DNA of 64,000 nucleotides from positions 55-64,054 of the forward strand of contig JAUWCU010000003.1 of assembly GCA_030609135.1 (NCBI GenBank), given 5' to 3'. This stretch comes from Candidatus Stahliibacteriota bacterium (GTDB lineage: Bacteria; Hydrothermota; Tepidihabitantia; SM23-42). The position numbers and the translations under genes were made by a program. Below, piece by piece: positions 2,373-62,818 of the stretch; positions within the stretch are counted from its first letter, which is position 1, and each line of letters starts with the position of its first letter. The notes beneath the pieces were generated by a model. The model had not been told where the DNA came from, searched no databases, and saw only the letters and a list, made by a program, of their open reading frames with translations.

Positions 2373-2532
2373 ACTTACCTCCAATTATAAATATATTAAC
2401 AAAAAATATACTTAAGTCAAGACCCAATAATCAAACGACCGAGAATTAAAAGTAGGGCATTTAAGCCCAGTATATCTCGAAGTTTTGAAGATGTGAGGCT
2501 CAGAACCTCTGAACAGATTGTTTAATAGCTGT

Positions 2533-2700
2533 AGTTGTCCAATTCATTGGACTGCCCGATAAATCCCGCAATCCTATTTATAGAATCTTGATACGAAACG
2601 GGATAAATCCCGCAATTCTATTTATAAAATCTTAATACGAAGCGGGATAAATCATCTGTCTGCCTCAGGCTGAGGCGACTACAATTGATTGAATCATAAG
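2533..2700. repeat. nested hairpin-repeat cluster (GTAG-headed hairpin, two GATAAATCCCGC palindromes, reversed GTAG-headed hairpin)
   Basis: tgtagttgtccaattcattggac. cccgataaatcccgcaatcctatttatagaat...cgggataaatcccgcaattctatttataaaat...gcgggataaat. gcctcaggctgaggcgactaca. Confidence 0.65.
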
Positions 2701-8222: not shown

Positions 8223-8436
8223 TGTAGTTGCTCGATTCATCGAGCATTGCCTGATAAATCAGGGGACTACATTATGCCTGATTCAGCGTGGGCTTGAGCG
8301 TGGAAAGTGTAGTTGCTCGATTTGCCCATACTTTGTAGTTGCCCAATTTATTGGGCTTATGGCCATGTTCATGTCCGATAAATCCCGCAATTCTATTTAT
8401 AGAATTATAATACGAAGCGGGATAAATCGGAGAACT
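8223..8436. repeat. nested hairpin-repeat cluster upstream of the OMP-thi4 unit
   Basis: tgtagttgctcgattcatcgagca. gcctgataaatcagg. tgtagttgcccaatttattgggc. gataaatcccgcaattctatttatagaatt..gcgggataaat. Confidence 0.65.
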
Positions 8437-16183: not shown

Positions 16184-16445
16184 AAGATTGTAGTGGTCGG
16201 ATTCATCCGACATTAATAAAAATGTGCAATAAATTGCACCGCTACAATTATTAATTGTACAACCATCTGAATATTGACATCTGTACTTTTTAATTTGTTC
16301 AAAGATAAACCCCGTAGGACATTTGCTGTCCAACGGGGTAAAGCCTTCTCCACGGTTCAAATTAGATACAAAAGCTTTTTGCTTTAGCAATAGCTGTTCT
16401 ATTTTATACATATCACCGCGGAGAAGACTTTACCATTATCTCTAT

Positions 16446-21124: not shown

Positions 21125-21190
21125 TCTCTTAGATTAGCTTATATTATGAATAAATACGTGCAAGTCAAGGGGAAGCGGATAATTAGTCTC

Positions 21191-21318
21191 GTAATTGTTC
21201 AATTTTCAGTGGAGAAGCGTAGTTGCGACATTTATGGCGTCTATTTATGTGGCATATCGAGACTTTCTGCACGATGAATCGTGCGACTACAATGTTCCAC
21301 CAAGTTTTGAACAATTAC
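21191..21318. mobile_element. MITE-like element, copy 1 (12-bp terminal inverted repeats GTAATTGTTCAA / TTGAACAATTAC)
   Basis: A second copy lies at 62661-62818 with the same termini and internal blocks (gtagttgcgacatttatggcg ... cacgatgaatcgtgcgactaca ... ccaccaagttttgaaca). No coding capacity. Confidence 0.65.
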
Positions 21319-21326
21319 TTAGCCTC

Positions 21327-21354
21327 TTGACACCTTATTAACACTTGTTATAAT
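21327..21354 (+). promoter_or_regulatory. sigma70-type promoter (TTGACA-N16-TATAAT) giving a leaderless transcript for the downstream lipoprotein gene
   Basis: TTGACA at 21327-21332, TATAAT at 21349-21354, ATG at 21361 (6 nt after the -10, no SD). Confidence 0.5.
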
Positions 21355-21360
21355 ACTTAT

Positions 21361-24912: not shown

Positions 24913-24957
24913 TTCATTCCTCGCAATGACAAGGAGAGAGGGGTTCCTCGCAATGAC
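24908..24957. repeat. tandem duplication (2 x ~25 bp, ttcctcgcaatgacaaggagaga) of the GTCATTGCGAG-family repeat
   Basis: Visible as ...ttcctcgcaatgacaaggagagaggggttcctcgcaatgacaaggagagatg... Same family as 25137-25175, 34180, 34365, 39190, 39656, 47978. Confidence 0.6.
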
Positions 24958-25173
24958 AAGGAGAGATGAGTATTTTCGAATGACGCAAGGAGTAGGGGCT
25001 TTAGCCCCGTCGTATATCGAAGCTTTGAAGATGTGAGGCTCAGAACCTCTGAACTTCTCAACTTCGAGATTGCTTTGGGGCTGCGTGTCTTGCAATGACA
25101 AGAATGGTGGGTATTCTTTGCCCGACCGATGAGTGTGTCATTGCGAGCCTGAACGAAGTTAAGGCGTGGCAAT

Positions 25174-29472: not shown

Positions 29473-29811
29473 GCCCAGATTATATGGAAAAATCCCTCAA
29501 TGTAAAGTATATTCATAAATCTGACATGTTGTAGTCCTGACAGGCATTTGCAGAGTAAACTCTGCCACTACAGAATGTGCGAAATATCACTGTCCCGCTA
29601 TGCGGGATCTTCGATTTTCCTATAGTGTATGCTAATATGATAAATCCCGCAATTCAATTTATAGAATTACAATACGAAGCGGGATAAATAGGGCGGAGAG
29701 AGTAGATGGAGTGCAACGGCTTGCCGTTGCATGCAGTAGCAAGCTACTGCACTCCGTAGCAAAATCAAGGGATAAGGGATAAAGATGTGTCCAAGGTTTC
29801 TTAATTAAAAG

Positions 29812-29839
29812 TTGACATTTCGTGCTATATATCTATAAT
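29812..29839 (+). promoter_or_regulatory. consensus sigma70 promoter for tRNA-Glu
   Basis: TTGACA 29812-29817, 16-nt spacer, TATAAT 29834-29839. The tRNA 5' end lies 8 nt downstream. Confidence 0.55.
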
Positions 29840-29846
29840 ATCCCAC

Positions 29847-29922
29847 GGCGCCATCGTCTAGCTTGGTTTAGGACGTCGCCCTCTCAAGGCGAAGATCACG
29901 GGTTCAAATCCCGTTGGCGCTA
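29847..29922 (+). tRNA. tRNA-Glu (anticodon CUC)
   Basis: Cloverleaf folded by hand. Acceptor stem GGCGCCA/UGGCGCU. D-arm GUCU...GGAC. Anticodon stem UCGCC/GGCGA with loop CU-CUC-AA. T-arm ACGGG-UUCAAAU-CCCGU. Discriminator A, no encoded CCA. Confidence 0.8.
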
Positions 29923-29939
29923 TTTTTTGAAATCGTTTA

Positions 29940-29967
29940 TTGACAAAATGAAGATTTTGCATATAAT
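29940..29967 (+). promoter_or_regulatory. consensus sigma70 promoter for the bactofilin operon
   Basis: TTGACA 29940-29945, 16-nt spacer, TATAAT 29962-29967. AGGAGG at 29993-29998 and ATG at 30004. Confidence 0.5.
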
Positions 29968-30003
29968 TTATGTTAATAAATTACTGATTCAAAGGAGGAT
30001 TGG

Positions 30004-31950: not shown

Positions 31951-32138
31951 ACAAGTGTTTTTTAACAGAATTATTAATAGCTATCATTATGGTGAGTTCT
32001 CGACAAGCCCCGTTAAATAATAGAGATCGATTTATGATAGAAGCAAAAAAGCGGGTTTAATGAGATGATAGATTTACTCGGAGGTGTAATATCTTGTATT
32101 TAACAGGGCAAGCTATCTCGATTTTACTCGATACAGGT

Positions 32139-32404
32139 CGAACAATAATGATTTTATACTTCGAGCGACCATGAGTTTTACGAATGAGAGTCGAGAATCG
32201 AGCGTTAATAATTGTAGTTGTCCAATTTATTGGACAAAACCTGATAAATCCCGCAATCCTATTCATAACATCATAACACGAAGCGGGATAAATCACCTGT
32301 CTGCGTGCGATGCACAGGCAGGCCTGTCTACCTCAGGCAGAGGCGACTCGAACAATAATGATTTTATACTTCGAGCGACCATGAGCTTTACGAATGAGAG
32401 TCGA
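32139..32404. repeat. composite repeat locus: 56-bp direct repeats (32139-32194 and 32349-32404) flanking three nested hairpin-repeat modules
   Basis: The direct repeat is cgaacaataatgattttatacttcgagcgaccatgag(t/c)tttacgaatgagagtcga. The interior holds a GTAG-headed hairpin (tgtagttgtccaatttattggaca), a GATAAATCCCGC...GCGGGATAAAT palindrome, and cacctgtctgcgtgcgatgcacaggcagg. Confidence 0.6.
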
Positions 32405-32578
32405 TAAGTACCATTCTGTCATTGCCTGGCTTGACCAGGCAATCCAGAATACCTATTCCGGGATCATTCGGCTAAACCGTATGATGACGACTAAAAATTT
32501 TTTGGATTTGATCATTGGAATTTGTTTAAGATTTAGAATTTTGATTTTGGGATTTACCGAACGAAGTGAGGTGTCATT

Positions 32579-32890: not shown

Positions 32891-34026
32891 ATTCAAGCGC
32901 CAAGAACCAAGACCCAAGACCCAAAAATAACATTCAAAACTTCTCATCTTCAGAATTTCCTAACTTCGATATTTGTATTATCGGCGGCGGTCCTGCAGGT
33001 CTTGAAGCCGGGATCATTGCACGTAGGCTCGGAGCCAAGGTTATGATAATCGATGATAACCCAGTGCTCGGTGGACAATTAATCAAGCAGACGCACAAGT
33101 TTTTCGGCTCTAAAGCGCATTATTGCGGTGTAAGAGGCGTTGATATAGCAGGTATTCTCAGCAAAGAGATTAAGGATTTAGGTTTTGACGTTCTCCACAA
33201 TGCAACTGTAGTTGGGTATTATGATGATGATATCATCGGTGTGCTGCAACATGATAAATTGTTGTCAGTAAAGGCAAGGGCGTACATTTTTGCAACCGGG
33301 GCTAGTGAAAACATGCTCGCCTTTGACAACGCAGATTTACCTGGTGTTTATGGCGCTGGTGCTGTACAGACCATGATGAATGTCTATGGTGTTGTGCCCG
33401 GGAAAAGAGCGGTGGTAATCGGGTCTGGTAATATCGGCTTGATTGTTCCTTATCAGTTGCTGCAGGCTGGTGTTGAGGTGGCGGCAATTATAGAAATCAT
33501 GGATAAAGTCGGTGGTTATTATGTTCACGCGGCAAAGCTAAAAAGAGCCGGTGTACCGATTATCCTCAAACACACAATTATCCAAGCCCAGGGTAGAGAT
33601 TGTGTTGAAGCTGCACTTATCAGCAAGGTCGACGGAAAATATAAGTGCCTGCCCGGTACAGAAAAAACAATTGAGTGCGACATGATTCTGATTGCGATCG
33701 GTCTTTCGCCACTCTGCGAATTGCTCTACCAGGCAGGATGTCGTATAGATTATATCCCTGAGCTTGGCGGTCATGTACCCCTTCACAATGAAGACATGAT
33801 GACTACCCAGAAAAACATCTTTGTGTGCGGTGATCTGGCGTGTATTGAGGAAGCGTCTACGGCTATGCTCGAAGGCAAGATTGCCGGAGCCAAGGCGCAT
33901 GAAGTTATATACGGCGAGACCAAGCAGGGTAAAGAGATTGCCCAACAGGCAAAAAGAGAACTCGCGGTTATTCGGTCTTCTCCATTTGAACAAAGGATTA
34001 CTTACGGTCTGAATAAGTTGAAGTAG
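32887..34026 (+). CDS. FAD/NAD(P)-binding pyridine-nucleotide-disulfide-type oxidoreductase
   Basis: ICIIGGGPAGLEAGIIARRLG (first Rossmann fold). VVIGSGNIGLIVPYQL (second Rossmann fold). The start overlaps the upstream stop (ATGA). The ORF-track start at 32824 is probably an extension. Confidence 0.65.
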   Translation: MNSSAKNQDPRPKNNIQNFSSSEFPNFDICIIGGGPAGLEAGIIARRLGAKVMIIDDNPVLGGQLIKQTHKFFGSKAHYCGVRGVDIAGILSKEIKDLGFDVLHNATVVGYYDDDIIGVLQHDKLLSVKARAYIFATGASENMLAFDNADLPGVYGAGAVQTMMNVYGVVPGKRAVVIGSGNIGLIVPYQLLQAGVEVAAIIEIMDKVGGYYVHAAKLKRAGVPIILKHTIIQAQGRDCVEAALISKVDGKYKCLPGTEKTIECDMILIAIGLSPLCELLYQAGCRIDYIPELGGHVPLHNEDMMTTQKNIFVCGDLACIEEASTAMLEGKIAGAKAHEVIYGETKQGKEIAQQAKRELAVIRSSPFEQRITYGLNKLK

Positions 34027-34473
34027 CTGCAAATACGTCTTCAACAATTCAACAGGACTATTGTCATTACGAGTGTAGTCGAGAACCCTCAACATGATTA
34101 TTGTTCCTCTCACCTTGTTCGAGACAGGCGAGCGAAGTTGAGAACTTCCGCAATATGGGTGATGGCCCTAGATAAAAATGTCATTGCGAAGGCGTAGCCT
34201 GAAGCAATCTCACCTCCTTTTGTCAATCAAGCGCGTGAGGGCATAGTATTTGTAGTGGTCGAGTTTACTCGACAAACATCCCTGCACGCTACGGTATTTG
34301 TGCAGAGCAAGCTCTGCCACTACATATGTTGGGGTAGGTCTTTACACGAGCGGGACTCTGTTTCATGTCATTGCGAATCCGCCGCGTCATATAGCGGACA
34401 AAGTCCCGCAATGCAAGGATCCTCGATTTTCATTTATTAGAAATATATAGTACGGAAAATCGGGATAGTCTCA

Positions 34474-34501
34474 TTGACAGCCCAATTTTTCTCTATATAA
34501 T
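34474..34501 (+). promoter_or_regulatory. sigma70-type promoter, leaderless start for the RnfB-like gene
   Basis: TTGACA 34474-34479, N16, TATAAT 34496-34501. ATG at 34510 with no SD. Confidence 0.45.
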
Positions 34502-34509
34502 ACCATGTT

Positions 34510-35526
34510 ATGAATGCAATAGAAGTCATAAAATCAGTTGCTGGTCTTGGCGGTCTCAGTTTGATTTTTGGTATTGTTCTGGCTGTTGCATTTAAGAAAC
34601 TCGCGGTCAAAGTTAGTGAACAAGAGCAGAAACTGAGAGATGCTTTGCCAGGTACAAATTGCGGTGCCTGTGGTTTCCCGGGTTGTGATGCCTATGCCCA
34701 TGCCTTAGCTGAAAATACTGGTGAGGTAGCGTCAAACCTCTGCACCGTCGGTGGTGCTGAAACAATTAGGAAAATCGGCGAAATCCTGGGCATTGAGGTT
34801 GAGGCAGCAGAACCAATGATGTGTGTATTACGATGCCGGGGCGGTAGGGAAAACGCAGTTGAAAAGTTTGAGTATATAGGGCCAGGTGATTGCCGAAGCA
34901 ATTACATCCTCTTGGGCGGTAATAAAGCATGTGAGTGGGGGTGTTTGGGCGGTGGTCACTGTGAGACTGTTTGTCCATTTGACGCCATTACAATGGGGCC
35001 GAATCGTCTACCTATTATTGATCCACACAAATGCACGGCATGTGGTATTTGCGTAAAAGAGTGTCCGCGTCAGGTACTTGAGTTACTACCCCGCGTTCAA
35101 TTGATATACTTGGCCTGTAAAACTCTGGATAAAGGTAAAGTGGTCAAAAATGTCTGCAAGGTTGGTTGTATTGGTTGTACCCTCTGTGTTAAGTCCTGTC
35201 CTTATGAAGGAGCAATACAAATGGATGGTAATCTTCCCAAGATGGACTATACCAAGTGTATATCATGTGGTATTTGTTATAATAAATGCCCTACCAAATC
35301 ATTTGTTGACCGTGCTCCAGCGCGACCTTATGCGATTATTTCTTCAAAGTGCGATGGCTGTGGAGAATGCGTAAAAGTATGTTTGTTCAAGGCAATTGAG
35401 GGAAAACCAGGAAAACGCCACACCGTGATAAAAGATAAGTGCATAGGCTGTGGCAGGTGTTTTGAAGTTTGTCCGATAAAAGTTATTACCATGGCTGGCG
35501 CCTTGGGATATGTAGAAACAGCATAG
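34510..35526 (+). CDS. RnfB-like Fe-S protein / polyferredoxin (N-terminal membrane anchor, RnfB-type Cys domain, multiple 4Fe-4S ferredoxin motifs)
   Basis: LPGTNCGACGFPGCDAYA (RnfB N-terminal cluster). Then more than 6 CxxCxxCxxxCP-type motifs (CTACGICVKECP, CIGCTLCVKSCP, CISCGICYNKCP, CDGCGECVKVC, CIGCGRCFEVCP). Confidence 0.6.
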   Translation: MNAIEVIKSVAGLGGLSLIFGIVLAVAFKKLAVKVSEQEQKLRDALPGTNCGACGFPGCDAYAHALAENTGEVASNLCTVGGAETIRKIGEILGIEVEAAEPMMCVLRCRGGRENAVEKFEYIGPGDCRSNYILLGGNKACEWGCLGGGHCETVCPFDAITMGPNRLPIIDPHKCTACGICVKECPRQVLELLPRVQLIYLACKTLDKGKVVKNVCKVGCIGCTLCVKSCPYEGAIQMDGNLPKMDYTKCISCGICYNKCPTKSFVDRAPARPYAIISSKCDGCGECVKVCLFKAIEGKPGKRHTVIKDKCIGCGRCFEVCPIKVITMAGALGYVETA

Positions 35527-35557
35527 TGTTAGAACATCAGGCTATCAGAGGATCAGG

Positions 35558-36373
35558 ATGAAGTTATATTATGCCAACTCCACATTGGACAATGCTCAAG
35601 TTATCATCCTTGGTCTTGGTTATGATAGAACTTCATCATTTATCCCTGGTTCGCGATTTGGACCCGAGTTTATAAGATTATGTTCTAATAATATTGAGGA
35701 ATATTCACCATATCAAGATAAGAGTCTTTGTAATGTGAACATATGTGATTGCGGGGAGGTAGAGTTTGACACAAAAGATTGGGTCTTAAAAGCGCGTACC
35801 GCAGTCAAAGAATACATAGATGAACAGAAATATCTCATTGCACTCGGCGGAGAGCATACGATTACCTTACCGATTACTCAAGTCCTAAAAGAGAAATATG
35901 AAAATTTTTCACTGGTTCATTTTGATGCTCACTGTGATCTACGCGATGAGTATCTTGAGCAGAAAATCTGCCACGCTACAGTGATGCGCCGGGTGAGCGA
36001 TATTATTGGGCTTGATAATCTATACCAGTTTGGTATTCGTTCAGGAACCCAGGAGGAATTTAGTTTTGGCAAGAACCTGTACAAATTCGATCTTTTTAAA
36101 CCTTTATCTTCAGTAATAAACAATATCAAAGAACCTATTTATCTATCAATAGATGTGGATGTTTTGGACCCGGGAGTATTACCGGCAGTTTCCACACCTG
36201 AACCAGGCGGGGTTTCATATCAGGAGTTTATTAAAGCACTGCTATTATTTAAAGACAAGAAAATACTTGGAGCTGATATTGTTGAATACAACCCTTTCGC
36301 TGCCTCACCATATGCGTCAGGCTCCACTGTCGCTGAGATACTGCGGGAGCTCATTCTGGTCGGAACTCCCTGA
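35558..36373 (+). CDS. speB: ureohydrolase (agmatinase/arginase family)
   Basis: Mn-binding motifs GGEHTIT, HFDAHCDL, SIDVDVLDP, and S/TPEPGG. The speB symbol is tentative (arginase, formiminoglutamase or guanidino-hydrolase are alternatives). Confidence 0.65.
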   Translation: MKLYYANSTLDNAQVIILGLGYDRTSSFIPGSRFGPEFIRLCSNNIEEYSPYQDKSLCNVNICDCGEVEFDTKDWVLKARTAVKEYIDEQKYLIALGGEHTITLPITQVLKEKYENFSLVHFDAHCDLRDEYLEQKICHATVMRRVSDIIGLDNLYQFGIRSGTQEEFSFGKNLYKFDLFKPLSSVINNIKEPIYLSIDVDVLDPGVLPAVSTPEPGGVSYQEFIKALLLFKDKKILGADIVEYNPFAASPYASGSTVAEILRELILVGTP

Positions 36374-36391
36374 TCCAGGTAAGTTTATAGT

Positions 36392-37080
36392 ATTCGTAGT
36401 GGTCGAGTTCACTCGACAAACATCCTTGCACGCCACGGTATTTGTGCAGAGCAAGCTCTGCCACTACATGTGTTCTTGATTCGTTCCAGTATCCAACCCA
36501 AACCCTTTTTCCATACTCACAGTTATAGTCGCTCGATTCATCGAGCCAATCTAATGGAGCGTCTGATAAATCAGACAACTACAAAGATTAATCAAATTGT
36601 TACATCATATCATTGTAGTTGCTCGATTCATCGAGCCAATTTACGCGGAAAGCCCCTCAGACTAGCATAATTACTGTTTCTCTCACCTTGTTCGAGACAG
36701 GCGAGCGAAGTCGAGAACCACCCTTTGCATTTTTCGCCGCCCAATTCATCCCGCTTCGTATTGTAATTCTATAAATAGAATTGCGGGATTTATCGGGCCA
36801 ATTTACGCGGAAGTATGTAGTCGCTCGATTCATCGAGCCAATCTAATGGAGCGTCTGATAAATCAGACAACTACAGCGCAGCGTATCTTCAGTGAAACGT
36901 GTCTCCAGCGTAGCGTGTCTTCAACAGAGTGTGTTCTCCATTTCTCCCATACTCCTTTTGTCGATCAAACGCGTGAGGGCATAGTATTTGTAGTGGTCGA
37001 GTTTACTCGACAAACATCCCTGCACGCTACGGTATTTGTGCAGAGCAAGCTCTGCCACTACATGTGTTCGGAATTCCTAA
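36392..37080. repeat. largest cluster of nested small hairpin repeats (about 700 bp, non-coding)
   Basis: Multiple GTAG-headed hairpins (tgtagtggtcgagttcactcgac, tgtagttgctcgattcatcgagc x3, tgtagttgtctgatttatcagac x2). One reversed GATAAATCCCGC element. The tctcaccttgttcgagacaggcgagcgaagtcgagaac element (also at 34100-34145). Duplicated 75-bp block 36392-36466 = 36985-37060. ORFs called here (36153, 36351, 36470, 36846) are repeat-derived. Confidence 0.7.
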
Positions 37081-37165
37081 TTACCAAATTACTCGGTTAC
37101 ACAACTATAAAAGGCTCGTATTGACACCGCCCATACCGTGCTTATAATTATCGTAAGGAGGAACA

Positions 37166-39016
37166 ATGACACTAATAATATTGTTTTTAGCAGGTCAATC
37201 ATTTTTTAACATTGAGAACAAGCAAGTATTCTATCCTGAACCAGTTAGAGCTGAATCAACGCACTCGTATGATGTACTGCACTATTTCATAGATCTGAAC
37301 CTTCCAATGACTTCCCGCTATCTTGAAGGCGCGGTTACGATTTCAGCCCGGAGTAATCAGGATAATTTGACGATTCTTGACCTCCACCTTTTAGGCTTGA
37401 GTGTTGATTCTTTAAAAGTCGATGGAGTTACTGCATCTTACTCCCACAATTACGAGACTTTATATGTGAATCTGCCTCAAGTCTATAATCAGGGTGATTC
37501 CTTTGATATAATGGTGGGATATAGTGGCACGGCTTCGGGCAGCATGGGTTATCTCAGGTATACCAGCACCCACCCCATTTCATATACCCTGGGTTGTCCA
37601 TTCTGCACAAGAAGATGGCTACCCTGTTATGACCGATTATGGGACAAGGCTGATTATGGTGTCGAGTTTTTTATAACTGTACCGGATTCCTATTATGTCT
37701 GCGCTACCGGAGAATTAATTGACGTAGATACTACGGCAGGTTATGCAACATTCAATTGGAAACATAATTATCCTATCGCTCCTTATCTTATTCACTTTGC
37801 TTCAAGCATCTTTACCACATATTCAGATTGGTATTATCCAGCGGCAGGAGATAGCATTGAGATTAAAAATCATTTCTGGCCTGAGGATATGATTTATGCC
37901 CCGACCGCGTTTCAATATACCACAGACATGATGTCTTATTATGATTCGCTTTATGGCGCTTATCCTTTTGAACGCTATGGTATGGTAATACTTCAGCCAT
38001 TCTATTATGCGGGCATGGAACATCAAACCATGAGCTCGATATATCGTACAGGTTTTGTTGGTAATGATTATTACCTGATGGCGCATGAGATGTCGCATAT
38101 GTGGTGGGGTGATATGGTAACGTGTTTTGGTTGGCAGAATGTCTGGCTGAACGAGGGTTTTGCAACATATTCTGATGCCCTGTACCGTGAACACCATGTT
38201 AATCATCAGCTTTTCATTAATACCATGATCTCCCGCCGCAATGCATACTTCAGCTCAGAAGCGTCGTTTCCACATCCGATCTATGACCCGCCGGCAAATC
38301 ATATTTTTAATTGGGGTCATTCTTATTGCAAGGGTTCATGGCTCTGTCATATGATCAGATATTTGTGCGGTGATGATAATACCTGGTTAAACCTGCTTGC
38401 CACATACCGTGATTCATTCGCATATCAAGATGCCTCAAGCGATGATTTGAACCGGATAATGGACCAGGTACTCGGAGGAAATTATGATTGGTTCTTTAAT
38501 GAATGGGTGTATGATCTTTACTATCCAATCTATGATATCGTGTGGGTAAAAATCTATGAATCGCCGAACTGGCGTTTGATTTTGGACATCACTCAAACTC
38601 AACCCATGGGCCCTTCGGTTTTTCATATGCCATTGCCAATCGGCGTAGATTTCTCAAGCGGTGATACAATATTAACGCTCGACATAAATCAATCCCCACA
38701 ACACTTTGAGTATGTATTGCTACAAGAGCCAATGGACATTATCGTTGATCCAGAAACCTGGGTAATTCAAAAAAATACTGTGACCCAGGGTATTGCAGAA
38801 TATGTTGCTCCCGGTATATTTATTGAGAACATCAACACGATCGGTCGGGCAATCGAGCTCAAGCTTACTCAACCCGGTTTAATTCGAATTTTTGATATTA
38901 CAGGCAGAAAGGTCTATGAAACACATGCTCAGGAGGTTAAATATCAACCTTCAAGCGCGGGTATCTACCACGTAATAATCGGTGACAAGAAACAGCGAGT
39001 AGTCGTTGTAAAATAA
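37166..39016 (+). CDS. M1-family zinc metallopeptidase with T9SS C-terminal sorting domain
   Basis: HEMSHMWWGD...NEGFATY (HExxH-x18-E). Exopeptidase-type motif YAGMEHQ (GAMEN variant). C-terminal ~80 aa ending ...AGIYHVIIGDKKQRVVVVK is typical of Por/T9SS CTDs. Consensus promoter plus AGGAGG upstream. Confidence 0.75.
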   Translation: MTLIILFLAGQSFFNIENKQVFYPEPVRAESTHSYDVLHYFIDLNLPMTSRYLEGAVTISARSNQDNLTILDLHLLGLSVDSLKVDGVTASYSHNYETLYVNLPQVYNQGDSFDIMVGYSGTASGSMGYLRYTSTHPISYTLGCPFCTRRWLPCYDRLWDKADYGVEFFITVPDSYYVCATGELIDVDTTAGYATFNWKHNYPIAPYLIHFASSIFTTYSDWYYPAAGDSIEIKNHFWPEDMIYAPTAFQYTTDMMSYYDSLYGAYPFERYGMVILQPFYYAGMEHQTMSSIYRTGFVGNDYYLMAHEMSHMWWGDMVTCFGWQNVWLNEGFATYSDALYREHHVNHQLFINTMISRRNAYFSSEASFPHPIYDPPANHIFNWGHSYCKGSWLCHMIRYLCGDDNTWLNLLATYRDSFAYQDASSDDLNRIMDQVLGGNYDWFFNEWVYDLYYPIYDIVWVKIYESPNWRLILDITQTQPMGPSVFHMPLPIGVDFSSGDTILTLDINQSPQHFEYVLLQEPMDIIVDPETWVIQKNTVTQGIAEYVAPGIFIENINTIGRAIELKLTQPGLIRIFDITGRKVYETHAQEVKYQPSSAGIYHVIIGDKKQRVVVVK

Positions 39017-39382
39017 GTCTGCTGTCATTGCGTAAGTATTTAATAATTGTAGTGGTCGAGTTTACTCGACAAATATCCTTCACGCTGCTTTTGCCCAACT
39101 GTAGTTGCCTCTGCCTGAGGCAGACAGGCCTGCCTGTGCGTCGCACGCAGACAGGTGATTTATCAGGCTGCATCAATCCGCCATCTTATGTCATTGTGAA
39201 GGCGAAGTCCGAAGCAATCTCCAAAAAAGAGATCGCTTCGTTCACACTCGCGATGACAGGAAAAAAATGTTACTGCGAGCGGAATCGAGAACCTTCAGCA
39301 GTAGTATAATATTGTTCTCTCCGTTGCTCCGATACTCCCTTTCACCGTTTCTCCCATTCTCCTGTTCTTGCCCGTTATCACG

Positions 39383-39410
39383 TTGACATATAGCCCTTTC
39401 TCGCTATAAT
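39383..39410 (+). promoter_or_regulatory. sigma70-type promoter with leaderless GTG start
   Basis: TTGACA 39383-39388, N16, TATAAT 39405-39410, GTG 39416. Confidence 0.4.
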
Positions 39411-39415
39411 ATATA

Positions 39416-40618
39416 GTGTCTCAGCAACTAAATATCTTGGTCACCGGCGCCGCCGGCTTTATCGGCTGGAAAGTCTGCGAACTCCTCCTCACCAAACCAG
39501 AGCTAATTCCGAGTGACATAATGACCAATGACTCAATGACTGTTTCTGTTATTGGCATCGACAACCTCAACGACTACTACGACATCCGCCTCAAACAATG
39601 GCGTCTTGAGCAATTAAAGAAGTTAAATAGTCATTGCCAGGAACCTTCCTCTTCCGTCATTGCGAGGAATCCCGAGTTTGTCGAGGGAGACGAAGCAATC
39701 TCACCCAATCGATTCATGTTTCACAAACTCGACATCGAAGACTACGCATCTCTTAAGAAATTGTTCCAAAAATACTCTGTTCATTCAAAAAGTACCGCAC
39801 AAAGTGCTCATAACCGCCCCGACACTTTGAATAAAAGTGTGGGGGCCAAAACCGCATCTTTGATGCCAGAACCGCCGTTTACGGCAGTGATCAATCTCGC
39901 TGCTCGTGCTGGTGTTCGCTACAGTTTGGAAAACCCGTTTGTATATTATACGACAAATGTCATCGGTACTTTAAACCTTCTCGAACTGTGTCGTGAATTT
40001 GGTGTGAAAAAATTCATCCTTGCATCTACTTCATCACTATATGCCGGACAGAAAATGCCTTTTAAAGAGGAGTTACCGGTGAATGAACCCATATCGCCTT
40101 ACGCAGCATCAAAAAAGAGTGCTGAAGTTACCTGTTATACATATCACAATTTGTATGATATCGATGTGACGATTTTAAGGTATTTCACTGTGTATGGACC
40201 AGCATCCAGACCTGATATGAGTCCCTTGCGTTTCATATCCTGGGTATATCAGGAAAAACCTGTTATCATATATGGAGATGGTACCCAGTCACGAGATTTT
40301 ACCTATGTCGATGACATCGCCCGCGGCACAATAATGGCATTAAAACCTTTGGGTTTTGATATAATAAACCTTGGCTGTGATCAACCCCATGAATTGCTCG
40401 AATTTCTTCACATGATTGAGGAGAAGCTGGGCAAGAAAGCAAAGATTGTCAATGAACCCATGCATCCTGCAGACATGAAAGCAACCTGGGCAGATATCAC
40501 TAAAGCTAAGAAAATACTCGGCTGGCAGCCTTCAGTAAGATTGGAACAGGGGCTCGATACTGCGGTTGTTTGGTTCACAAAAAACCGTACCTGGCTTGCT
40601 GATATCAAGCTCTCTTGA
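39416..40618 (+). CDS. NAD-dependent epimerase/dehydratase (UDP-glucuronate 4-epimerase-like) with three extra in-frame segments in the N-terminal Rossmann region
   Basis: ILVTGAAGFIGWKVCELLL ... VIGIDNLNDYYD ... KLDIEDYASLKKLF ... AVINLAARAGVRYSLENP ... YAASKKSAEV (YxxxK). Extra segments sit at about 39495-39545, 39625-39720 and 39765-39880. The middle one contains the repeat gtcattgcgaggaatcccgagtttgtcgagggagacgaagcaatctcac (39656-39704). Confidence 0.75.
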   Translation: MSQQLNILVTGAAGFIGWKVCELLLTKPELIPSDIMTNDSMTVSVIGIDNLNDYYDIRLKQWRLEQLKKLNSHCQEPSSSVIARNPEFVEGDEAISPNRFMFHKLDIEDYASLKKLFQKYSVHSKSTAQSAHNRPDTLNKSVGAKTASLMPEPPFTAVINLAARAGVRYSLENPFVYYTTNVIGTLNLLELCREFGVKKFILASTSSLYAGQKMPFKEELPVNEPISPYAASKKSAEVTCYTYHNLYDIDVTILRYFTVYGPASRPDMSPLRFISWVYQEKPVIIYGDGTQSRDFTYVDDIARGTIMALKPLGFDIINLGCDQPHELLEFLHMIEEKLGKKAKIVNEPMHPADMKATWADITKAKKILGWQPSVRLEQGLDTAVVWFTKNRTWLADIKLS

Positions 40619-41678: not shown

Positions 41679-42578
41679 ATGCTGGCAACTAATCTTACCG
41701 TTCATATAGATTCTTCCTACATCCCTTGGCGAGTTCAAGCTGGAGAAGAACCACAGTATTTGTGGCGCTGGGCAATGGCATACGGTGAGTCATACTGGCG
41801 GAATTTTTATGCCTGCACCACCAAGGTGCAATGCCTGCGGAATTATGCAGACACAACTTATGACGACACCTATTTTGATGGTGTCTTTGTTGACAATTTG
41901 CTCCACTTCGTTGATGGTTTGAGTTATGGTTACAACATTTATCCTGCACAATATCGTCCTTATCCGGATACCAATAACTTTGCACAATGGGATGCAAACT
42001 TACGTGCGGCAGTAGATACTTTTGTGCAAACAGTAAGCGCTGAATACCATAACCCTAACACACCTTCTGGTCATCCTTGCGAGGTTTTAGCAATAGGCAA
42101 TACAAACCGGGCACATTTGGTGGATGAATATGCTACTTTATGGAAAAATTTTCTGCAATATCTGGATGGCGCAGTGGAAGAATCTGATTTTGCGCGTGCT
42201 GATATAGAATTTGGTCGCTGGCAGAGAATGATTCATGAAATGGCGATTGCCGAATCATTGGGCAAGATATGCCTCATTCATGTGCCCTGTTCCACAGAAT
42301 TTTATAGTCCTAATGACCCTTTGAGTGTCTACTATTATGACTCAACTCAGATGATTTATGGTTTTGCAAGTTACTTGATGGCTTACGATTCTGTGAGTCA
42401 TTTCGCTTTAAATAAGAATCTTTCTCCCAATTATGCCCATATCTACTGGGCACCGATTTTTTCAATTTGTTCAATTTCTGAATTGGTGAATAGGCGGTTT
42501 CGGAATAGATATTTCGGCTTAAATGTTTCTGGAGATTTTCCCATAAAACAATTATACATATTTTTTGCGAGAACTTAA
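41679..42578 (+). CDS. N- and C-terminally truncated paralog of the 45127-47931 secreted protein (possible gene fragment)
   Basis: Homologous to residues ~175-470 of the 934-aa paralog but lacks a signal peptide. Shares a 103-bp identical DNA tract (41763-41865 = 45646-45748). Ends at a TAA immediately followed by a G9 run. Confidence 0.4.
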   Translation: MLATNLTVHIDSSYIPWRVQAGEEPQYLWRWAMAYGESYWRNFYACTTKVQCLRNYADTTYDDTYFDGVFVDNLLHFVDGLSYGYNIYPAQYRPYPDTNNFAQWDANLRAAVDTFVQTVSAEYHNPNTPSGHPCEVLAIGNTNRAHLVDEYATLWKNFLQYLDGAVEESDFARADIEFGRWQRMIHEMAIAESLGKICLIHVPCSTEFYSPNDPLSVYYYDSTQMIYGFASYLMAYDSVSHFALNKNLSPNYAHIYWAPIFSICSISELVNRRFRNRYFGLNVSGDFPIKQLYIFFART

Positions 42579-42587: not shown

Positions 42588-42758
42588 TAATATGAGGACC
42601 TTTTTATCGAAACAATTATCGGTAAAAATTTTAAGACCCCAAAAAGTGCATTCGCGTGTTGACAAAGACAAAACCAATGATTATAATTATAATATGAATT
42701 TTGATACCACGAAGTTTTGGGGAAAATTAAATTATTACTAAAAAGACAAGGAGGAAAT

Positions 42759-45069
42759 ATGAAAAGAGTGGTCATTGGGATATGTGCAATAGTGATAGGG
42801 TTTATGCCCTTGTCCATCTATGGTTCTGAAATTGCAACTGTAACTTTGGAAACCTGGATGAATGCTTCCCAGGGTTTTGAACCAAACCTTGGTCAGATTG
42901 GCGATTTTGAAGGGAATGTGGTTAATAATATCTTGTGCGCTTTCAAGGGTAATGGACTTGGTATATTCATTAATGAAAAAGGGGTAAGTTATGTTATTTA
43001 TCAAGCGGAAAAAATCTTAAGAGATGAGTCCCAGAGAATTGATTTAAGAGAACCTGAAAAAAATCTTATCCACTATGCAAGGATTGATGTGGAGCTTGTG
43101 AATTCCAATTTTGAAAAGTCAAAAATCGTTTATGAAGATGAGCTACCCGGATATGCGCATTATTATTTGCCACAATGTCCTGATGGTATTCTTTATGTGA
43201 AAAGTTTCAGAAAGGTGCGGATTAAAGAGATATATCCGGGCGTTGACTGGATATGGAAATATGAAGATGGACGGTTGCATCATGAATTTGAGGTCAAACC
43301 TGCGTCTGATGTTTCAAAGATAAAGATGAAGGTTAAATGGGCTGATGTTGAGATAAGCGAAAATGGTAGAAAACTTATATATTCTACGCCACTTGGTAAG
43401 ATAAAAGATGGAAATATACTTGGTTATGAAAATCCGAAATCCAAAATCCGAAATCCGAGACCGATTGATATTTCTTATATAAAAAATGAAGATGGGATAA
43501 TTTCCTTTGAAATAAAGAATTATTCCGGTAAAAATCCTCTAATTATTGACCCACCCCTTGCACTATTATGGGGGACATATTACGGAGGCAATGATCCTGA
43601 TCGTGGCTATTCAATTACAACCGATAATTCAGGTAATATTTTTGTAACTGGGACCACTTATTCAACAGAATTTTCCCACACAAGACCCCGGTGGTGGTGC
43701 TTATTATCAAGGTACAAAAGCAGGATATTTTGATGTATTTGTTTTAAAGTTTACAAATACAGGGGTTCGGCTTTGGGCGACATATTACGGAGGAAATGAC
43801 AGAGATGGGGGCGCTTCAATTATAACTGACAATTCAGGTAATGTTTTTGTAGGTGGAACCACCTATTCAACAGATTTTGCCACACAGGACCCTGGCGGTG
43901 GTGCTTATTATCAAGGAACATTTGCAGGTGTTGGTGATGCATTTATTTTGAAGTTTACAAATGTTGGTATTCGCCTCTGGGCAACATATTACGGCGGAAA
44001 TGATAGTGATATGGTGTGTTCGATTACCACTGATAATTCAGGTAATGTTTTTATAACTGGGTGGACTCTTTCAACAGATTTTCCCATACAGGACCCTGGC
44101 GGTGGTGCCTATTATCAGGGAGCAAATGCAGGTTATAGAGATGCATTTATTTTGAAGTTTACAAATACGGGTGTTCGTCAATGGGCAACGTATTACGGAG
44201 GAAATGCTGGTGATTGGTGCAATTCAATTACAGCGGATAGTTCAGGTAATGTTTTTATAGCCGGATACACCTATTCAACAAATTTCCCCACATATGACCC
44301 CGGGGGAGGTGCTTATTATCAGGAAACACTTGGAGGTGTTCATGATGCATTTATTTTGAAGTTTACAAATACCGGTGTTCGGCAAAGGGCGACATATTAC
44401 GGCGGAAATAATGAGGATATGTGTAATTCAGTTACAACTGATGCTTCAGGTAATATTTTTGTGACTGGATACACTTTTTCACCAGATTTTCCCACATATG
44501 ACCCCGGGGGAGGTGCTTATTATCAGGGAGCACTTGCAGGCGGATATGATGCATTTGTCTTGAAGTTTACAAATAGCGGTATTCGCCAATGGGCAACGTA
44601 TTACGGAGGAAATGATGTGGATTGTGGCTTTTCAATTAAAACCGATAATTCAGGTAATGTTTTTGTAACTGGACTAACTGTTTCAACAAATTTCCCAACA
44701 CAGGACCCTGGCGGTGGTGCTTATTATCAGGGGACACATGCAGGTGTTGGTGATGTATTTCTTTTGAAGTTTGAAACTTCACTGGGAATTGTAGAGGAAA
44801 ATACTAAAAAGAATGAGCCTTCGGTTCTAATTATTTCTTCTATCTTTATCAACAGAATACGAATAGACCTTTCATTATCTTCTAAAAAACCCATGGCTCT
44901 TATCCTTTATAATTTATTGGGGCAGAAAATCTTTTCAAGGTCTTATCCTGAAACTAAGTCTCTTATTATAAGAGGCAGAGAGATTGAAGAATTGAGTAAA
45001 GGAATATATTTCTTATCTGTCTATTCAGGAAAAAAAGAGATTGGCAGGGTTAAGCTGATAAAGAGATAA
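42759..45069 (+). pseudogene. SBBP (beta-propeller) repeat protein with T9SS C-terminal domain, disrupted by a +1 frameshift near 43669-43670 (assembly error not excluded)
   Basis: ORF-track pieces 42717-43733 and 43948-45069 are one gene. The repeat [16 protein letters not shown]...WATYYGGND reads through in the alternate frame after an extra A in tcaacagAAttttccc (other repeats have tcaacagAttttccc). Six ~204-bp tandem repeats. The likely real start is ATG 42759 after AAGGAGG. C-terminus ...[22 protein letters not shown]. Confidence 0.6.
43560..44780 (+). repeat. six tandem ~204-bp (68-aa) intragenic repeats encoding SBBP blades
   Basis: The tattacggaggaaatga core recurs at about 43579, 43786, 43987, 44196, 44397, 44601 with high nucleotide identity. 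Confidence 0.8.
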
Positions 45070-45126: not shown

Positions 45127-47931
45127 ATGGGGCGATTTAAGGTAATTCTTATCGTGATTGTAATCTATTTAATGGCTCAGATTGTTTTTGCTGAGCCCAC
45201 CGCAAAGACTTATATCTTTGCCGCATCCCAATATATGTTTTACCATCCCTGGTATGGTGGAAACCCTCTGGATTCGCTTTGCAAACACTTTGATGTGATT
45301 ATCTTTCATGACTGGAATAGGGATACAATCCCTACGATTCGGGATAGCACAAAAGTAGAATGGCGTAGAAATAATGCGCCAATACTTTTATTGTATAAAG
45401 ATGCAATGACTATATGTGGTCCAGGTCGTCCCTGGCATCCTGAACCAGACCCGACAATTGGTGGTCGTGAAACTGTTGGTGGGTATAATCATTTTGATTC
45501 GTTATTAAAGCAAAATTACCCGTCAGATACTTTCTTTATGTTAGCGACGACCGTAGGTTCTCAGCAAACTTCCCATTATGATACCATCGTTATCGGTAAT
45601 GATACTCTGCATCGTGTCAAGGCTGGTAGTGATCCCTCCTGGCAGTGGCGCTGGGCAATGGCATACGGTGAGTCATACTGGCGGAATTTTTATGCCTGCA
45701 CCACCAAGGTGCAATGCCTGCGGAATTATGCAGACACAACTTATGATGATACCTATTTTGACGGTGTACTCATTGATAATTTGTTACCCTTAAGAAGTCT
45801 GCATGGCTTATATCCACAACAATATCCCGACAATAACAGTTTTAGAGAGGCGGTTTATTCTTTCACCCAGACCGCCTGCTCTGAATATCATAATCTTACA
45901 TCACCTCCGGGTAATCCCCGTTCAATTCTTGGTACTGGCAATTTGAACTATATTTACTTAACACCTCTAAGTGATACAGTATGGAAAAAGCTTCTCCATA
46001 TTTTAGATGGCGGTATGGAGGAAGGCTCAGATGGCTTACACAGATTGTCTTTTAATGACTGGCATAGAATTATGCAGGAAATTGCAATGGCTGAATCTTT
46101 AGGTAAGATATCTTTTATACGTGAGGCAGTTGACTCATGCGAATACGATACAATTATCAATCCCTTTGGATTACTTTCGTTTAGTTCTACAAATCTGATG
46201 TTTGGTTTTACAAGTTATCTTATGGTCTTTGATTCTATGGCGCACTTCTATTTTTGTCCACGGGAAGGTCCGCATTACGCGTTTATCTGCTGGGCGCCAG
46301 TCTTAGATATTGATATTGGTAAGCCAATGGGGCGGTACATCCTGACCGCAGACACCCTCGCATATCGTTATTATGAAGGTGCAGCAGTATTTGCCAATCC
46401 GTGCAGTCTTTCATCAGTAACTGCAGGTTTCCCCGGTGATACTTTGTTGTTCATAAAGACAGCATCCTGCACAGTGGATGTTACAATTGACCAGTTAATA
46501 CTTCCTTCTCATACAGGGGTAATTGGACTTTATCCATTAAACTATTTCCAGGCAAGCGGTTTTGAGCCTGATGACCGTTTGTGCTGGGAGAACTACTGTC
46601 TTGAGGTTGAGGGGGTTACAAATTGCTATGCAAAAAGAGTGCAGGGTATTCCGCCAAACGGTGTGACACCACATTCCGGTCAATGGATGTATAAGGTTTA
46701 TGGTCAGGATGAGAGCACTGATACAAGTTTTGTCAGCTTCAAGGTCTTTCCGTACGATGTGCTGATTGAAGATCCCACTTATCTGTCTTTCTGGATATAT
46801 GTTGAAGATGCACCCGGCGATTCAGCACCGATTGGTATAGACTGTCTACTAAAGAGCGGCAAGCGGTTGAGTGAGTGGACAAAATTTGGCACGATTTTAG
46901 ACCAGTATGGTAAAGAAATAAATCCCGCTGACCGCCGTGTGCCCGAAGGTGCGTGGTATCAATATGTGTTTACATTTAACCCGGCAGTCAACGAAACGAT
47001 TGACCACATTGAGTTGGTTTATGATGGCTCGCAGATTTCAGAGACCGGCGATTTTTGTGCGTATATTGATGATATAGAGATACTAACTCAATTCCCGATA
47101 CTCGATACCTGGTATGCGGAGAAGTTTCCGGTTGGCAGTCCCATCAATAATCCTAACAATTATGACCCGAACTTCTATATGAACTTCATTGCTCAAGGCG
47201 ATTCTGTTAGATTGATTATCAATCCACAGGGTGATGGTGGTGAGGGTGCGCACTGGGTTAACCCGGCGCCAGGGATTAGAAACAACATTACTGATATTTC
47301 TGTTGATTCATTCACAACAGTCATCTGGAGTCAGTATGATAAGGCACACAGTCTGATTCTTTCGCTATTTGTCCATGATAACCAGGAGAATAACCGATGG
47401 CTTATGTATGCAAAGAATGCGAGCAATTGGTGGCCACAAACCGGCTGGGTTGATATGGGAGATACGGCGAGGCATTATAATATGTGGGAAGGGTTTTTTA
47501 GGAACATTAGAGATGATTATACTGCGGAATACGGCGGTGAAGTTGAACCCGAATCTATCATAGAGTTGAGACTGGAGCACTTTGCCCGGTCAGAATGGGT
47601 TGGTGATTCCGGTGGGACAATCAGGAATCTTTTCATCGTGCCCTTCACCCAGGAATTTACCATAAATCAAAATCAGACCTATACCAATATGCCATATGTA
47701 GCACTGAGGACCAAAGTGACTTCTGAGATTGTGGACTCAATGAATATCCATCAGGATTATAGCGATTCGCTTACGGATTCTACTGGCTGGATTGCCTATG
47801 ATACTTCCTATTGCTGGTATCTGCGAGAGGGAGAAGGAAACAACACAGTTTATATTCAATACAAGGTTGGTGGTTTCAGCGAGAGTCCGGTCTATTGCGA
47901 TACCATCATCTTTGATAAAACTTTGACTTGA
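45127..47931 (+). CDS. large secreted hypothetical protein (signal peptide; paralog of 41679-42578)
   Basis: 934 aa. N-terminal MGRFKVILIVIVIYLMAQIVFA. No recognisable catalytic motif. SD GGAGGTG upstream. Confidence 0.5.
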   Translation: MGRFKVILIVIVIYLMAQIVFAEPTAKTYIFAASQYMFYHPWYGGNPLDSLCKHFDVIIFHDWNRDTIPTIRDSTKVEWRRNNAPILLLYKDAMTICGPGRPWHPEPDPTIGGRETVGGYNHFDSLLKQNYPSDTFFMLATTVGSQQTSHYDTIVIGNDTLHRVKAGSDPSWQWRWAMAYGESYWRNFYACTTKVQCLRNYADTTYDDTYFDGVLIDNLLPLRSLHGLYPQQYPDNNSFREAVYSFTQTACSEYHNLTSPPGNPRSILGTGNLNYIYLTPLSDTVWKKLLHILDGGMEEGSDGLHRLSFNDWHRIMQEIAMAESLGKISFIREAVDSCEYDTIINPFGLLSFSSTNLMFGFTSYLMVFDSMAHFYFCPREGPHYAFICWAPVLDIDIGKPMGRYILTADTLAYRYYEGAAVFANPCSLSSVTAGFPGDTLLFIKTASCTVDVTIDQLILPSHTGVIGLYPLNYFQASGFEPDDRLCWENYCLEVEGVTNCYAKRVQGIPPNGVTPHSGQWMYKVYGQDESTDTSFVSFKVFPYDVLIEDPTYLSFWIYVEDAPGDSAPIGIDCLLKSGKRLSEWTKFGTILDQYGKEINPADRRVPEGAWYQYVFTFNPAVNETIDHIELVYDGSQISETGDFCAYIDDIEILTQFPILDTWYAEKFPVGSPINNPNNYDPNFYMNFIAQGDSVRLIINPQGDGGEGAHWVNPAPGIRNNITDISVDSFTTVIWSQYDKAHSLILSLFVHDNQENNRWLMYAKNASNWWPQTGWVDMGDTARHYNMWEGFFRNIRDDYTAEYGGEVEPESIIELRLEHFARSEWVGDSGGTIRNLFIVPFTQEFTINQNQTYTNMPYVALRTKVTSEIVDSMNIHQDYSDSLTDSTGWIAYDTSYCWYLREGEGNNTVYIQYKVGGFSESPVYCDTIIFDKTLT

Positions 47932-62453: not shown

Positions 62454-62520
62454 AAAGAAATTGTATTCAATTTAATAGTGAAGTCAAGGTAGAACCCACA
62501 TTCTATTTAGATTTTTTTTG

Positions 62521-62598
62521 ATAATATCTGTAATATTTGAATAAAAGATGGGATTAATATCTTTCAAGGAGGATTTTTGGGCGATCAATGATACGTTA
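62521..62598. repeat. direct repeat B (partner of 61421-61507)
   Basis: See repeat A. Confidence 0.7.
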
Positions 62599-62660
62599 TG
62601 ATTCAATTGGTTCTTTGATAGAGCGGCAATGATCATAATGGTTGGGATGATATGTTACAT

Positions 62661-62818
62661 GTAACTGTTCAATTTTCGGTGGAAACTTGTAGTTGCGACA
62701 TTTATGGCGCATATTTGTTTTAAATTTCAAGACATTTTGCACGATGAATCGTGCGACTACACCCCGCCATTTTGTAAAAGAGCGGGGTACATTAGTCCAC
62801 CAAGTTTTGAACAGTTAC
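62661..62818. mobile_element. MITE-like element, copy 2 (with a 30-bp internal hairpin insert ccccgccattttgtaaaagagcgggg)
   Basis: Same terminal inverted repeats and internal blocks as 21191-21318. Confidence 0.65.

Follow-up and report, generated by a model that had tools for sequence, protein, structure and literature searches.

The 64,000-nucleotide stretch analyzed here (the window; contig JAUWCU010000003.1 of Candidatus Stahliibacteriota bacterium) carries, between its genes, many short hairpins that are headed by the tetranucleotide GTAG. What are these hairpins, and what spreads them? From the letters alone they had been taken for repetitive extragenic palindromes (REPs) that are mobilized by a REP-associated tyrosine transposase (RAYT) encoded outside the window. 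Our analysis makes it probable that the elements are GTAG-tagged REPs of the kind found in REPtrons (a RAYT gene flanked by its REPs) and in bacterial interspersed mosaic elements (BIMEs), i.e., non-autonomous elements that are processed by a RAYT encoded elsewhere.

The window was searched for GTAGT followed, after 0-3 nt, by a perfect stem of ≥5 bp, a loop of 3-6 nt and the complementary arm. This structural census returned 22 elements, whereas 1.1±1.1 were expected (maximum 4 in 50 shuffles), a clear excess of the motif plus palindrome over the shuffled background that bears out the original count by eye of at least about 20 copies. Each of the positions that had been listed by eye corresponds to a real element, although the head at 36518 reads ATAGT and the copies at 21212 and 62688 have one stem mismatch. 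The sequence TGTAGTNG occurs 27 times, compared with 4.7±1.9 in dinucleotide-preserving shuffles, none of which (0 of 100) reached 27. All 22 elements are intergenic, in a window where intergenic DNA accounts for only 11.2 kb of the 64 kb (17.5%), and no hairpin was present at the four TGTAGTNG matches within open reading frames (ORFs) that were checked (5264, 18863, 33207 and 56012). The claim that such hairpins occupy nearly every intergenic region was overstated, as GTAG elements were found in 10 of the 27 spacers longer than 60 nt. These include three divergent promoter spacers (21125-21360, 29473-30003 and 62454-62876), and the densest is the spacer that had been flagged at the outset, 36374-37165 (792 nt), with eight hairpins.

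The typical unit is ~22 nt long and consists of an unpaired (T)GTAGT tag, one variable base, a perfect 6-bp stem, a TTYA loop and the complementary arm. Among the 22 census elements, stems are of 5-7 bp (mostly 6) and usually start with G, and loops are of 3-5 nt, with TTCA or TTTA in 17 cases and CTTG in three. The elements fall into two classes. In class A the head GTAGTGG goes with the stems GTCGAG and GCAGAG; in class B the head is GTAGT[T/C]G, and the stem-loop follows the pattern NNNGA-TTYA-TCNNN. We then aligned 22 distinct elements from the window and from its close relatives L023 and L039. In this set G-T-A-G-T is invariant, the loop is nearly so, and the stem begins one base later. 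All six stem pairs vary on both sides (39 cells), and no pair shows a one-sided G-T change. Paired cells amounted to 97.7%, against 22-39% when the partner column was slid, a percentage that is circular because the elements were chosen for pairing. Non-circular support is given by the number of compensated stem variants and by the presence of a hairpin in fixed register at 21 of the 32 intergenic GTAGT/ACTAC sites. Since the variation is strictly Watson-Crick, a hairpin formed at the DNA level fits better than an RNA hairpin.

The head is thus fixed while the stem varies, as had been proposed, but the palindromes that had been called imperfect have perfect stems. The proposal that recognition occurs via the GTAG head holds in part. 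RAYTs are HUH/Tyr enzymes that cut single-stranded REPs, one strand only, and GTAG is essential for cleavage (PMC8266576). However, with short perfect REPs a loop base and an uninterrupted stem also matter, the stem sequence being fairly free, and the TTYA loop is conserved here too. The published selection experiments on TnpA-REP systems with short perfect REPs, such as REPtron Sm of Stenotrophomonas maltophilia (SELEX, systematic evolution of ligands by exponential enrichment; Corneloup et al. 2021, PMC8266576) gave the pattern that we see by conservation: GTAG needed, loop base critical, stem fairly free. An invariant tag, a conserved loop and freely covarying perfect stems therefore match the published requirements of RAYTs.

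Most of the hairpins are paired head-outward (HH), in the order GTAGT-hairpin 1-spacer-hairpin 2-ACTAC, over 41-152 nt, and the two stems of a pair differ. At least 12 such dimers are present in the window. When folded as single-stranded (ss) DNA, the dimers are predicted to form an outer GTAGT/ACTAC stem and two inner hairpins, i.e., a three-way junction, with fold z-scores of -6.5 (8222-8272), -3.1 (36815-36877) and -4.9 (a dimer from Candidatus Desantisbacteria). The two dimers at 36525..36582 and 36817..36874 are 100% identical over 58 nt and their flanks are unrelated; hence, the dimer appears to be the unit of copying. No target-site duplication was found at these two copies (flanks gtta and aaag versus tatg and gcgc).

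A RAYT linked to these REPs was found on a related contig, L095. There, the same REP cluster of ~110 nt borders a gene for a 146-amino acid Y1 transposase to the left and to the right, and this cluster includes the exact class-A hairpin sequences of the window. Both hairpins of the dimer at 36396..36467 are represented, with the left loop TTCA in the window and TTTA in L095. The TAG stop codon of the transposase gene lies within a GTAG head, and the upstream extension of its reading frame is a spurious ORF that translates REPs. The protein matched Pfam PF01797 (E=1.7e-12), and scored 76.8 bits with NCBIfam NF047646, 'REP-associated tyrosine transposase', against 38.6 bits with IS200. Its best meaningful match in the Protein Data Bank (PDB) was TnpA-REP of Escherichia coli (4ER8), with weak similarity (E=0.013). 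In this alignment DHLH stands opposite EHMH (the HUH motif), the Y of REYVLNNP stands opposite Tyr115, and FWQRNYYEHIIR aligns to IWQPRFWEHAIR with W94, Q95, E100, H101 and R104 all identical; these are the residues with which E. coli TnpA-REP contacts GTAG (PMC6006769).

Homologues of the L095 protein numbered 4959 at E≤1e-5. Several are named RayT by the Joint Genome Institute (JGI), and the annotation of related RAYTs extends to Omnitrophota, Brocadiales and Patescibacteria. In these contig-level data, most homologue clusters were confined to 1-3 contigs each. Seven more homologues, 59-65% identical, were located on ten other loci (L103-L108 and L110-L113), all with flanking GTAG dimers of the form GTAG-NN-GCARAG-YTTR-CTYTGC … G(T/C)CGAG-CAAG-CTCG(A/G)C-CA-CTAC. 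The REP flanks at L095 and at these ten loci reproduce the published REPtron pattern. One of the loci, L111 (GCA_975966495.1), codes for two RAYTs 2 kb apart (555-1046 and 3001-3441) that are only 33% identical, each with its own flanking REP type (GTAGCGTCCTG… and GTAGTTGCAGAG…). The REP stems are nearly identical across RAYTs that share only ~60% identity and reside in metagenome-assembled genomes (MAGs) with different phylum labels, which is mildly surprising. A different TnpA, encoded at 8888-9319 of the Desantisbacteria-type contig L072 (143 amino acids, DHVHVF…YIKYQ), is of the classical IS200 type without flanking GTAG REPs and was set aside. The REPs that flank a RAYT do match those of the window on L095; no RAYT of the window's own lineage was recovered. 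Taken together, the anatomy of the elements, L095 and the ten further RAYT loci lend support, at the level of sequence, to the idea that the GTAG-headed REPs are mobilized by a RAYT encoded outside the window.

How do these elements compare with known REP systems? A survey of GTAG-tagged REPs from >80 species and 8 phyla sorted them into 24 families and described HH, tail-to-tail (TT) and head-to-tail (HT) dimers, sub-families, REPtrons, and elements nested inside other palindromes (Di Nocera, De Gregorio & Rocco 2013, PMC3733652). As in those families, an unpaired GTAG stands at one end of a short-loop stem (6-13 bp in the survey), sub-families arise by complementary stem changes, several families coexist in a genome, singletons, HH dimers (with 1-100-nt spacers in the survey), heterodimers and clusters occur, and RAYTs are flanked by cognate REPs. 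The differences are that the tag is extended to (T)GTAGT, that the loops are of 4 nt (TTYA/CTTG) rather than mostly 2-3 nt, that the G-T stem pairs often seen there are absent, that elements also lie in divergent promoter spacers, and that the host belongs to a candidate phylum (WOR-3-like, near-identical REPs being found in Desantisbacteria and other MAGs) not named in the sections of the survey that were read. Every defining feature of GTAG-tagged REPs that was tested was found in the elements of the window.

Close counterparts are also the TnpA-REP systems of subclass 2.5 (Bertels group 3), to which REPtron Sm belongs, with REPs of ~22-23 nt, a perfect stem and a small loop (PMC8266576). 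The RAYT found here also resembles this subclass in its length (~146-151 amino acids) and in the DHLH and WQ motifs, which makes it a putative member, and it differs in the Tyr motif, YVLNNP instead of YI[VI]ANP (table in PMC6006769). As in the BIMEs of E. coli, REPs of two types follow one another by turns, inverted, with conserved linkers between them, and are tandemly repeated (L008, 2241-2392; less regularly in the window, 36396-37061), although E. coli REPs are long, bulged palindromes and those of the window are short and perfect. As with REPINs (REP doublets forming hairpins; Bertels & Rainey 2011, PMC3116915), an inverted REP doublet is the apparent copying unit and the RAYT is mostly on few contigs per cluster. 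In REPINs, however, the arms are near-identical and form one long hairpin, whereas here the stems differ (GTCGAG versus GCAGAG; GCTCGA versus GTCTGA) and only the 5-7-nt heads pair. As the arms of a pair are not mutual copies, the elements fall outside the strict definition of a REPIN, and by analogy their mode of action seems nearer to that of the Y/Z BIMEs of E. coli.

In the mechanism that we propose, this genome would contain, outside the window, a single gene for a RAYT (TnpA-REP, an HUH/Tyr nuclease) with the same REPs on its flanks, and this RAYT would act on both class-A and class-B elements. The enzyme would bind the folded ssDNA hairpin, with the GTAG tag positioning the adjacent cleavage, and the strands would then be rejoined such that dimers are excised or copied without target duplication. 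Several points weigh against this reading. Not even in E. coli has transposition of REPs by a RAYT been demonstrated in vivo (PMC8266576). The score of the L095 protein falls slightly short of the NCBIfam cutoff (76.8 versus 80 bits). As had been noted at the outset, the window holds no RAYT gene (tblastn with three Y1 transposases, no match at E≤1); a search by regular expression and tblastn of the window and the first 24 loci recovered none, nor was any found in the 8-9-kb stretches of the relatives L039, L023, L041 and L052. Three RAYT homologues known only from Logan contigs (P0021, P0029 and P0037) came from samples other than those of the window (SRR14923480 and SRR14923492). Among the loci examined no RAYT with class-B REP flanks was found, and class-B REPs were seen almost exclusively in the window's lineage; they may lack a cognate RAYT, or may use a new one. 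In addition, no clean pair of filled and empty sites was found for any GTAG element among contigs >99% identical, and the variants in tandem-unit number that those contigs do show could also arise by assembly collapse.

The distribution of the elements, and their turnover between relatives, were analyzed by exact matching, with a 23-mer against species-representative genomes and a 22-mer against metagenomes. The 23-mer was found in 24 stretches from MAGs of Candidatus Desantisbacteria, candidate division WOR-3, the PVC group and unclassified 'bacterium', and the 22-mer in 76 metagenome contigs. The alanyl-tRNA synthetase (AlaRS) of the window is ~65-70% identical to homologues named WOR-3, and up to 91% identical to closer, unnamed relatives. 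A literature search on WOR-3 together with REP found nothing; these are GTAG-REPs of a known class in a WOR-3-like uncultivated bacterium, a host where they were previously undescribed. In a Desantisbacteria MAG, where these hairpins are abundant, we observed head-to-tail arrays of 24-nt REP singlets (L005, 2383-2577), an arrangement called rare in published REP families, and tandem 51-nt dimers (L008, 2241-2392). Two contigs from different samples (L009 and L092), >99% identical, differ by whole units; at this level of identity the variants were changes in tandem-unit number plus a few unrelated indels.

At larger distances the genes align while the spacers are remodelled. Contig L039 is 90-95% (~92%) identical to the window over 33174-40538, and L023, L041 and L052 are ~75% identical and syntenic. 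The flagged spacer measures ~790-840 nt against ~440-470 nt in L039, where one class-A dimer and one class-B singlet are held in common and the remainder cannot be aligned. The spacer upstream of a ferredoxin-like gene (34027-34509) is 483 nt long against ~35 nt in L039. Conversely, ~1.4 kb separate the genes for M1 peptidase and an epimerase in L039 (4993-6420), against ~360 nt of repeats in the window (39016-39380). Short-read contigs carrying the M1 peptidase gene terminate inside the repeats.

These observations bear on a first alternative, namely that the elements are relics, either of a RAYT since lost or of a family that now spreads without a dedicated enzyme, solely by segmental duplication, slippage and recombination between copies. 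Consistent with it, neither the window nor the stretches of its relatives showed a RAYT; two class-A copies share 38 nt of left flank, within a 120-nt unit that is 97% identical (36952-37071 versus 34214-34333), and so resemble a segmental copy; the variants in the population are whole tandem units gained or lost; the composite within 32138-32407 has a copy of one 60-nt host segment on each side; and REPtrons have been deleted in many E. coli strains (PMC3733652). Nevertheless, the 58-nt dimers are 100% identical with unrelated flanks, the spacers have been remodelled quickly relative to a 92%-identical relative, and the absence of a RAYT is uninformative, given that ~64 kb were searched of a genome that is probably >2 Mb. 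We therefore think it unlikely that the elements are relics.

The hairpins could also act at the level of RNA, as terminators, stabilizers of mRNA 3′ ends or attenuators, and be selected for that function rather than being mobile DNA. They do lie mostly between the stop codon of one gene and the promoter of the next, perfect TTGACA-16-TATAAT promoters are found downstream of clusters at 34474, 37121 and 39383, and REPs affect mRNA stability in other bacteria (PMC3733652). However, no hairpin is followed by a T-tract (the sequence there is A-rich or mixed), and no terminator-like site was detected in the spacers within 34000-39450, in agreement with the earlier view that most of the hairpins are not rho-independent terminators. 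Rfam gave no match to the elements; its sole match at gathering score was a tRNA, along with a meaningless microRNA match (E=0.33) in the region. Moreover, the stem variation is free of G-T wobble, the dimers carry hairpins in both orientations, and elements are present in the three divergent promoter spacers. A purely RNA-level origin is thus very unlikely, and a host role would be a secondary use that leaves the REP origin standing.

It is still less probable that the elements are miniature inverted-repeat transposable elements (MITEs) of a DDE-type insertion sequence (IS), with GTAGTGG/CCACTAC as terminal inverted repeats. The inverted termini of 5-7 nt, the dimer length of 41-152 nt and the assembly breaks at these sites would suit such elements, but identical dimer copies lack target-site duplications, singlets and head-to-tail arrays of 24-nt units exist, and the sole gene repeatedly flanked codes for a Y1/HUH transposase. 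An identity with the small dispersed repeats (SDR) of Nostocales cyanobacteria, which the AT-rich sequence and the nested 20-50-nt repeats recall (SDR description as cited in PMC5861425 and PMC3116915, the comparison being by description only), was rejected on taxonomy as scarcely credible, because the host is not cyanobacterial, its closest named AlaRS relatives being WOR-3 and the exact matches lying in Desantisbacteria, WOR-3 and PVC-group MAGs. The RAYT-associated REP of Nostoc punctiforme (gttgggtt…aacccaac; Bertels & Rainey Table S2, PMC3116915) is unrelated to the elements of the window.

The reading as GTAG-tagged REPs that depend on a RAYT encoded elsewhere is thus retained, and the individual elements are listed in Table 1.

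Table 1. GTAG-headed elements of the window and the micro-element nested among them
Positions	Strand	Feature	Remarks
2531..2682	+	HH heterodimer GTAGTT-GTCCAA-TTCA… / …GCCTCA-GGC-TGAGGC-GACTAC	Split by two tandem 44-nt GATAAATC units
8224..8270	+	Minimal 47-nt HH heterodimer	Fold z = -6.5; GTAGT/ACTAC form outer stem
8335..8356	+	Class-B REP singlet GTAGTT-GCCCAA-TTTA-TTGGGC	Truncated REP at 8309
16190..16245	+	HH dimer	Right head degenerate (CCGCTAC)
21219..21290	+	HH heterodimer inside larger palindrome	Upstream of promoter of gene 21361 (+)
29531..29571	+	41-nt HH dimer	Right REP GTAGTG-GCAGAG-TTTA-CTCTGC on minus strand
32214..32348	+	HH heterodimer with nested 44-nt GATAAATC unit and 27-nt extra segment	Right head truncated to ACT
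34252..34323	+	Class-A HH heterodimer	
36396..36467	+	Class-A HH heterodimer GTAGTG-GTCGAG-TTCA-CTCGAC, 28-nt spacer, GCAGAG-CAAG-CTCTGC-CACTAC	
36525..36582	+	Class-B HH heterodimer (A)TAGTC-GCTCGA-TTCA-TCGAGC … GTCTGA-TAAA-TCAGAC-AACTAC	Head ATAGT
36615..36636	+	Class-B REP singlet GTAGTT-GCTCGA-TTCA-TCGAGC, then shared 3′ flank CAATTTACGCGGAA	Orthologous copy in L039 at 2778
36745..36800	-	36-nt micro-element CCGC…GCGG bounded by GATAAATC/GATGAATT	In loop of class-B REP; outer arms CCC/GGG
36817..36874	+	Class-B HH heterodimer, second identical copy	Fold z = -3.1
36990..37061	+	Class-A HH heterodimer	
39049..39070	+	Class-A REP singlet	Left half of class-A dimer
39101..39165	+	REP GTAGT-TGCCTC-TGCCT-GAGGCA and adjoining segment	Empty-site version of 32241-32348
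62689..62760	+	HH heterodimer	Paralogue of 21219-21290 (83% over 101 nt)

Other repeat families had been described as interleaved with the GTAG hairpins, and these proved to be real. The palindrome GATAAATCCCGC is present in six exact copies against 0.29 expected in the window. It is part of a 36-nt unit, CCGCAATTCTATTTATAGAATTAYAATACGAAGCGG (CCGC…GCGG), that is always bounded by an 8-nt direct repeat, GATAAATC, and occurs at 2558-2657 (a tandem pair with a 44-nt period), 8377-8432, 29639-29690, 32243-32294 and 36745-36800 (minus strand). At 8377 and at 36745-36800 a class-B REP holds the unit in its loop, with complementary outer flanks (CC/GG and CCC/GGG, respectively). At 32241-32295 a 44-nt unit, made of the 36-nt core and a second GATAAATC, is inserted after GATAAATC, and the paralogous empty site at 39140-39153 reads CCTGATAAATCACC on the minus strand, without the insert. 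No copy was found in the loci of the relatives L039, L023, L041 and L052, the orthologous flagged spacer of L039 included. The 36-nt unit may thus be a very small element directed at REP loops, although its mobility is not proved by six copies in a single window. As with the insertion sequences that target REPs (IS1397 and others; cited in PMC3116915), it lands in the loop region of a REP hairpin, but it is only 36 nt long and non-coding, with an 8-nt direct repeat, and no parent IS was identified. We tentatively suggest, while holding it doubtful, that the 36-nt element inserts into the GATAAATC loop region of class-B REPs, which would make the spacers stacks of ever-smaller mobile elements, with the REP hairpins as the lowest layer. 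Each insertion would then recreate the site into which it went, and the tandem pair of 44-nt period would be accounted for. If this is true, the micro-elements would be 'hyperparasites' of REPs, and few mobile elements that generate target duplications would be as small. The nested micro-insertions in the spacers are, again, mildly surprising.

A 27-nt segment, GTGCGATGCACAGGCAGGCCTGTCTAC, bounded by TGTCTGC/TGTCTAC, was observed in two copies of the right half of a REP dimer (32296-32330 and 39110-39135) and is absent from a third (2661-2668), so that here too a micro-insertion, in this case with a direct repeat of 7 nt, may have occurred. The sequence GTCATTGCGA has 15 matches at ≤1 mismatch in the window against 3.5 expected. 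Hairpins of the GTCATTGCGA…GCAATCTC family, together with related repeats of the form tgtcattccctgg…ccagggaatcc, lie at 34063-34400, 24917-25150, 39024-39260, 5495-5521 and 32414-32440; they also occur in L023 and L039 and are unrelated to the GTAG elements. The repeat pairs 2451/24991 and 34093/36666 were recovered as well.

Larger structures surround some of the dimers. Those within 21191-21320 and 62661-62840 are enclosed in a palindrome, GTTCAATTTTCRGTGGA … TCCACCAAGTTTTGAAC, directly upstream of the -35 boxes of genes 21361 and 62877, possibly an operator or promoter module common to both genes; inserted into the palindrome at 62661-62840 is an extra CCCCGC…GCGGGG hairpin. The 60-nt host segment duplicated around a composite REP dimer (32138-32197 and 32348-32407, 97% identity) is single-copy in the syntenic L023 (2246-2305), and at the junction only ACT is left of the right REP head.

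The genes that neighbour the elements in the window are ordinary housekeeping genes, and a plasmid search with the flagged region as query gave no match. The cumulative GC-skew minimum (~29500-30000) coincides with a switch of the genes from the minus to the plus strand, at a spacer with tRNA-Glu(CTC), which may mark an origin of replication or just the border between operons. Across the ORFs at 42717-45069 run five to six tandem repeats of 204 nt (68 codons; 43569-44784), and a separate 147-nt segment (41762-41908 and 45645-45791) is common, at 93% identity, to two genes 3.9 kb apart.

To our knowledge, REP/RAYT systems have been studied almost solely in Proteobacteria. Here, a dense and diverse population of GTAG-REPs, with two coexisting classes, is found in an uncultivated WOR-3-like bacterium. 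Such repeats have practical consequences, since they break short-read MAG assemblies (Logan contigs end inside them), inflate intergenic spacers and create spurious ORFs. The pattern of REPs and RAYTs across phyla bears on the question of whether REPtrons are strictly vertical, 'domesticated' systems, or whether they also spread horizontally among co-resident anaerobes.

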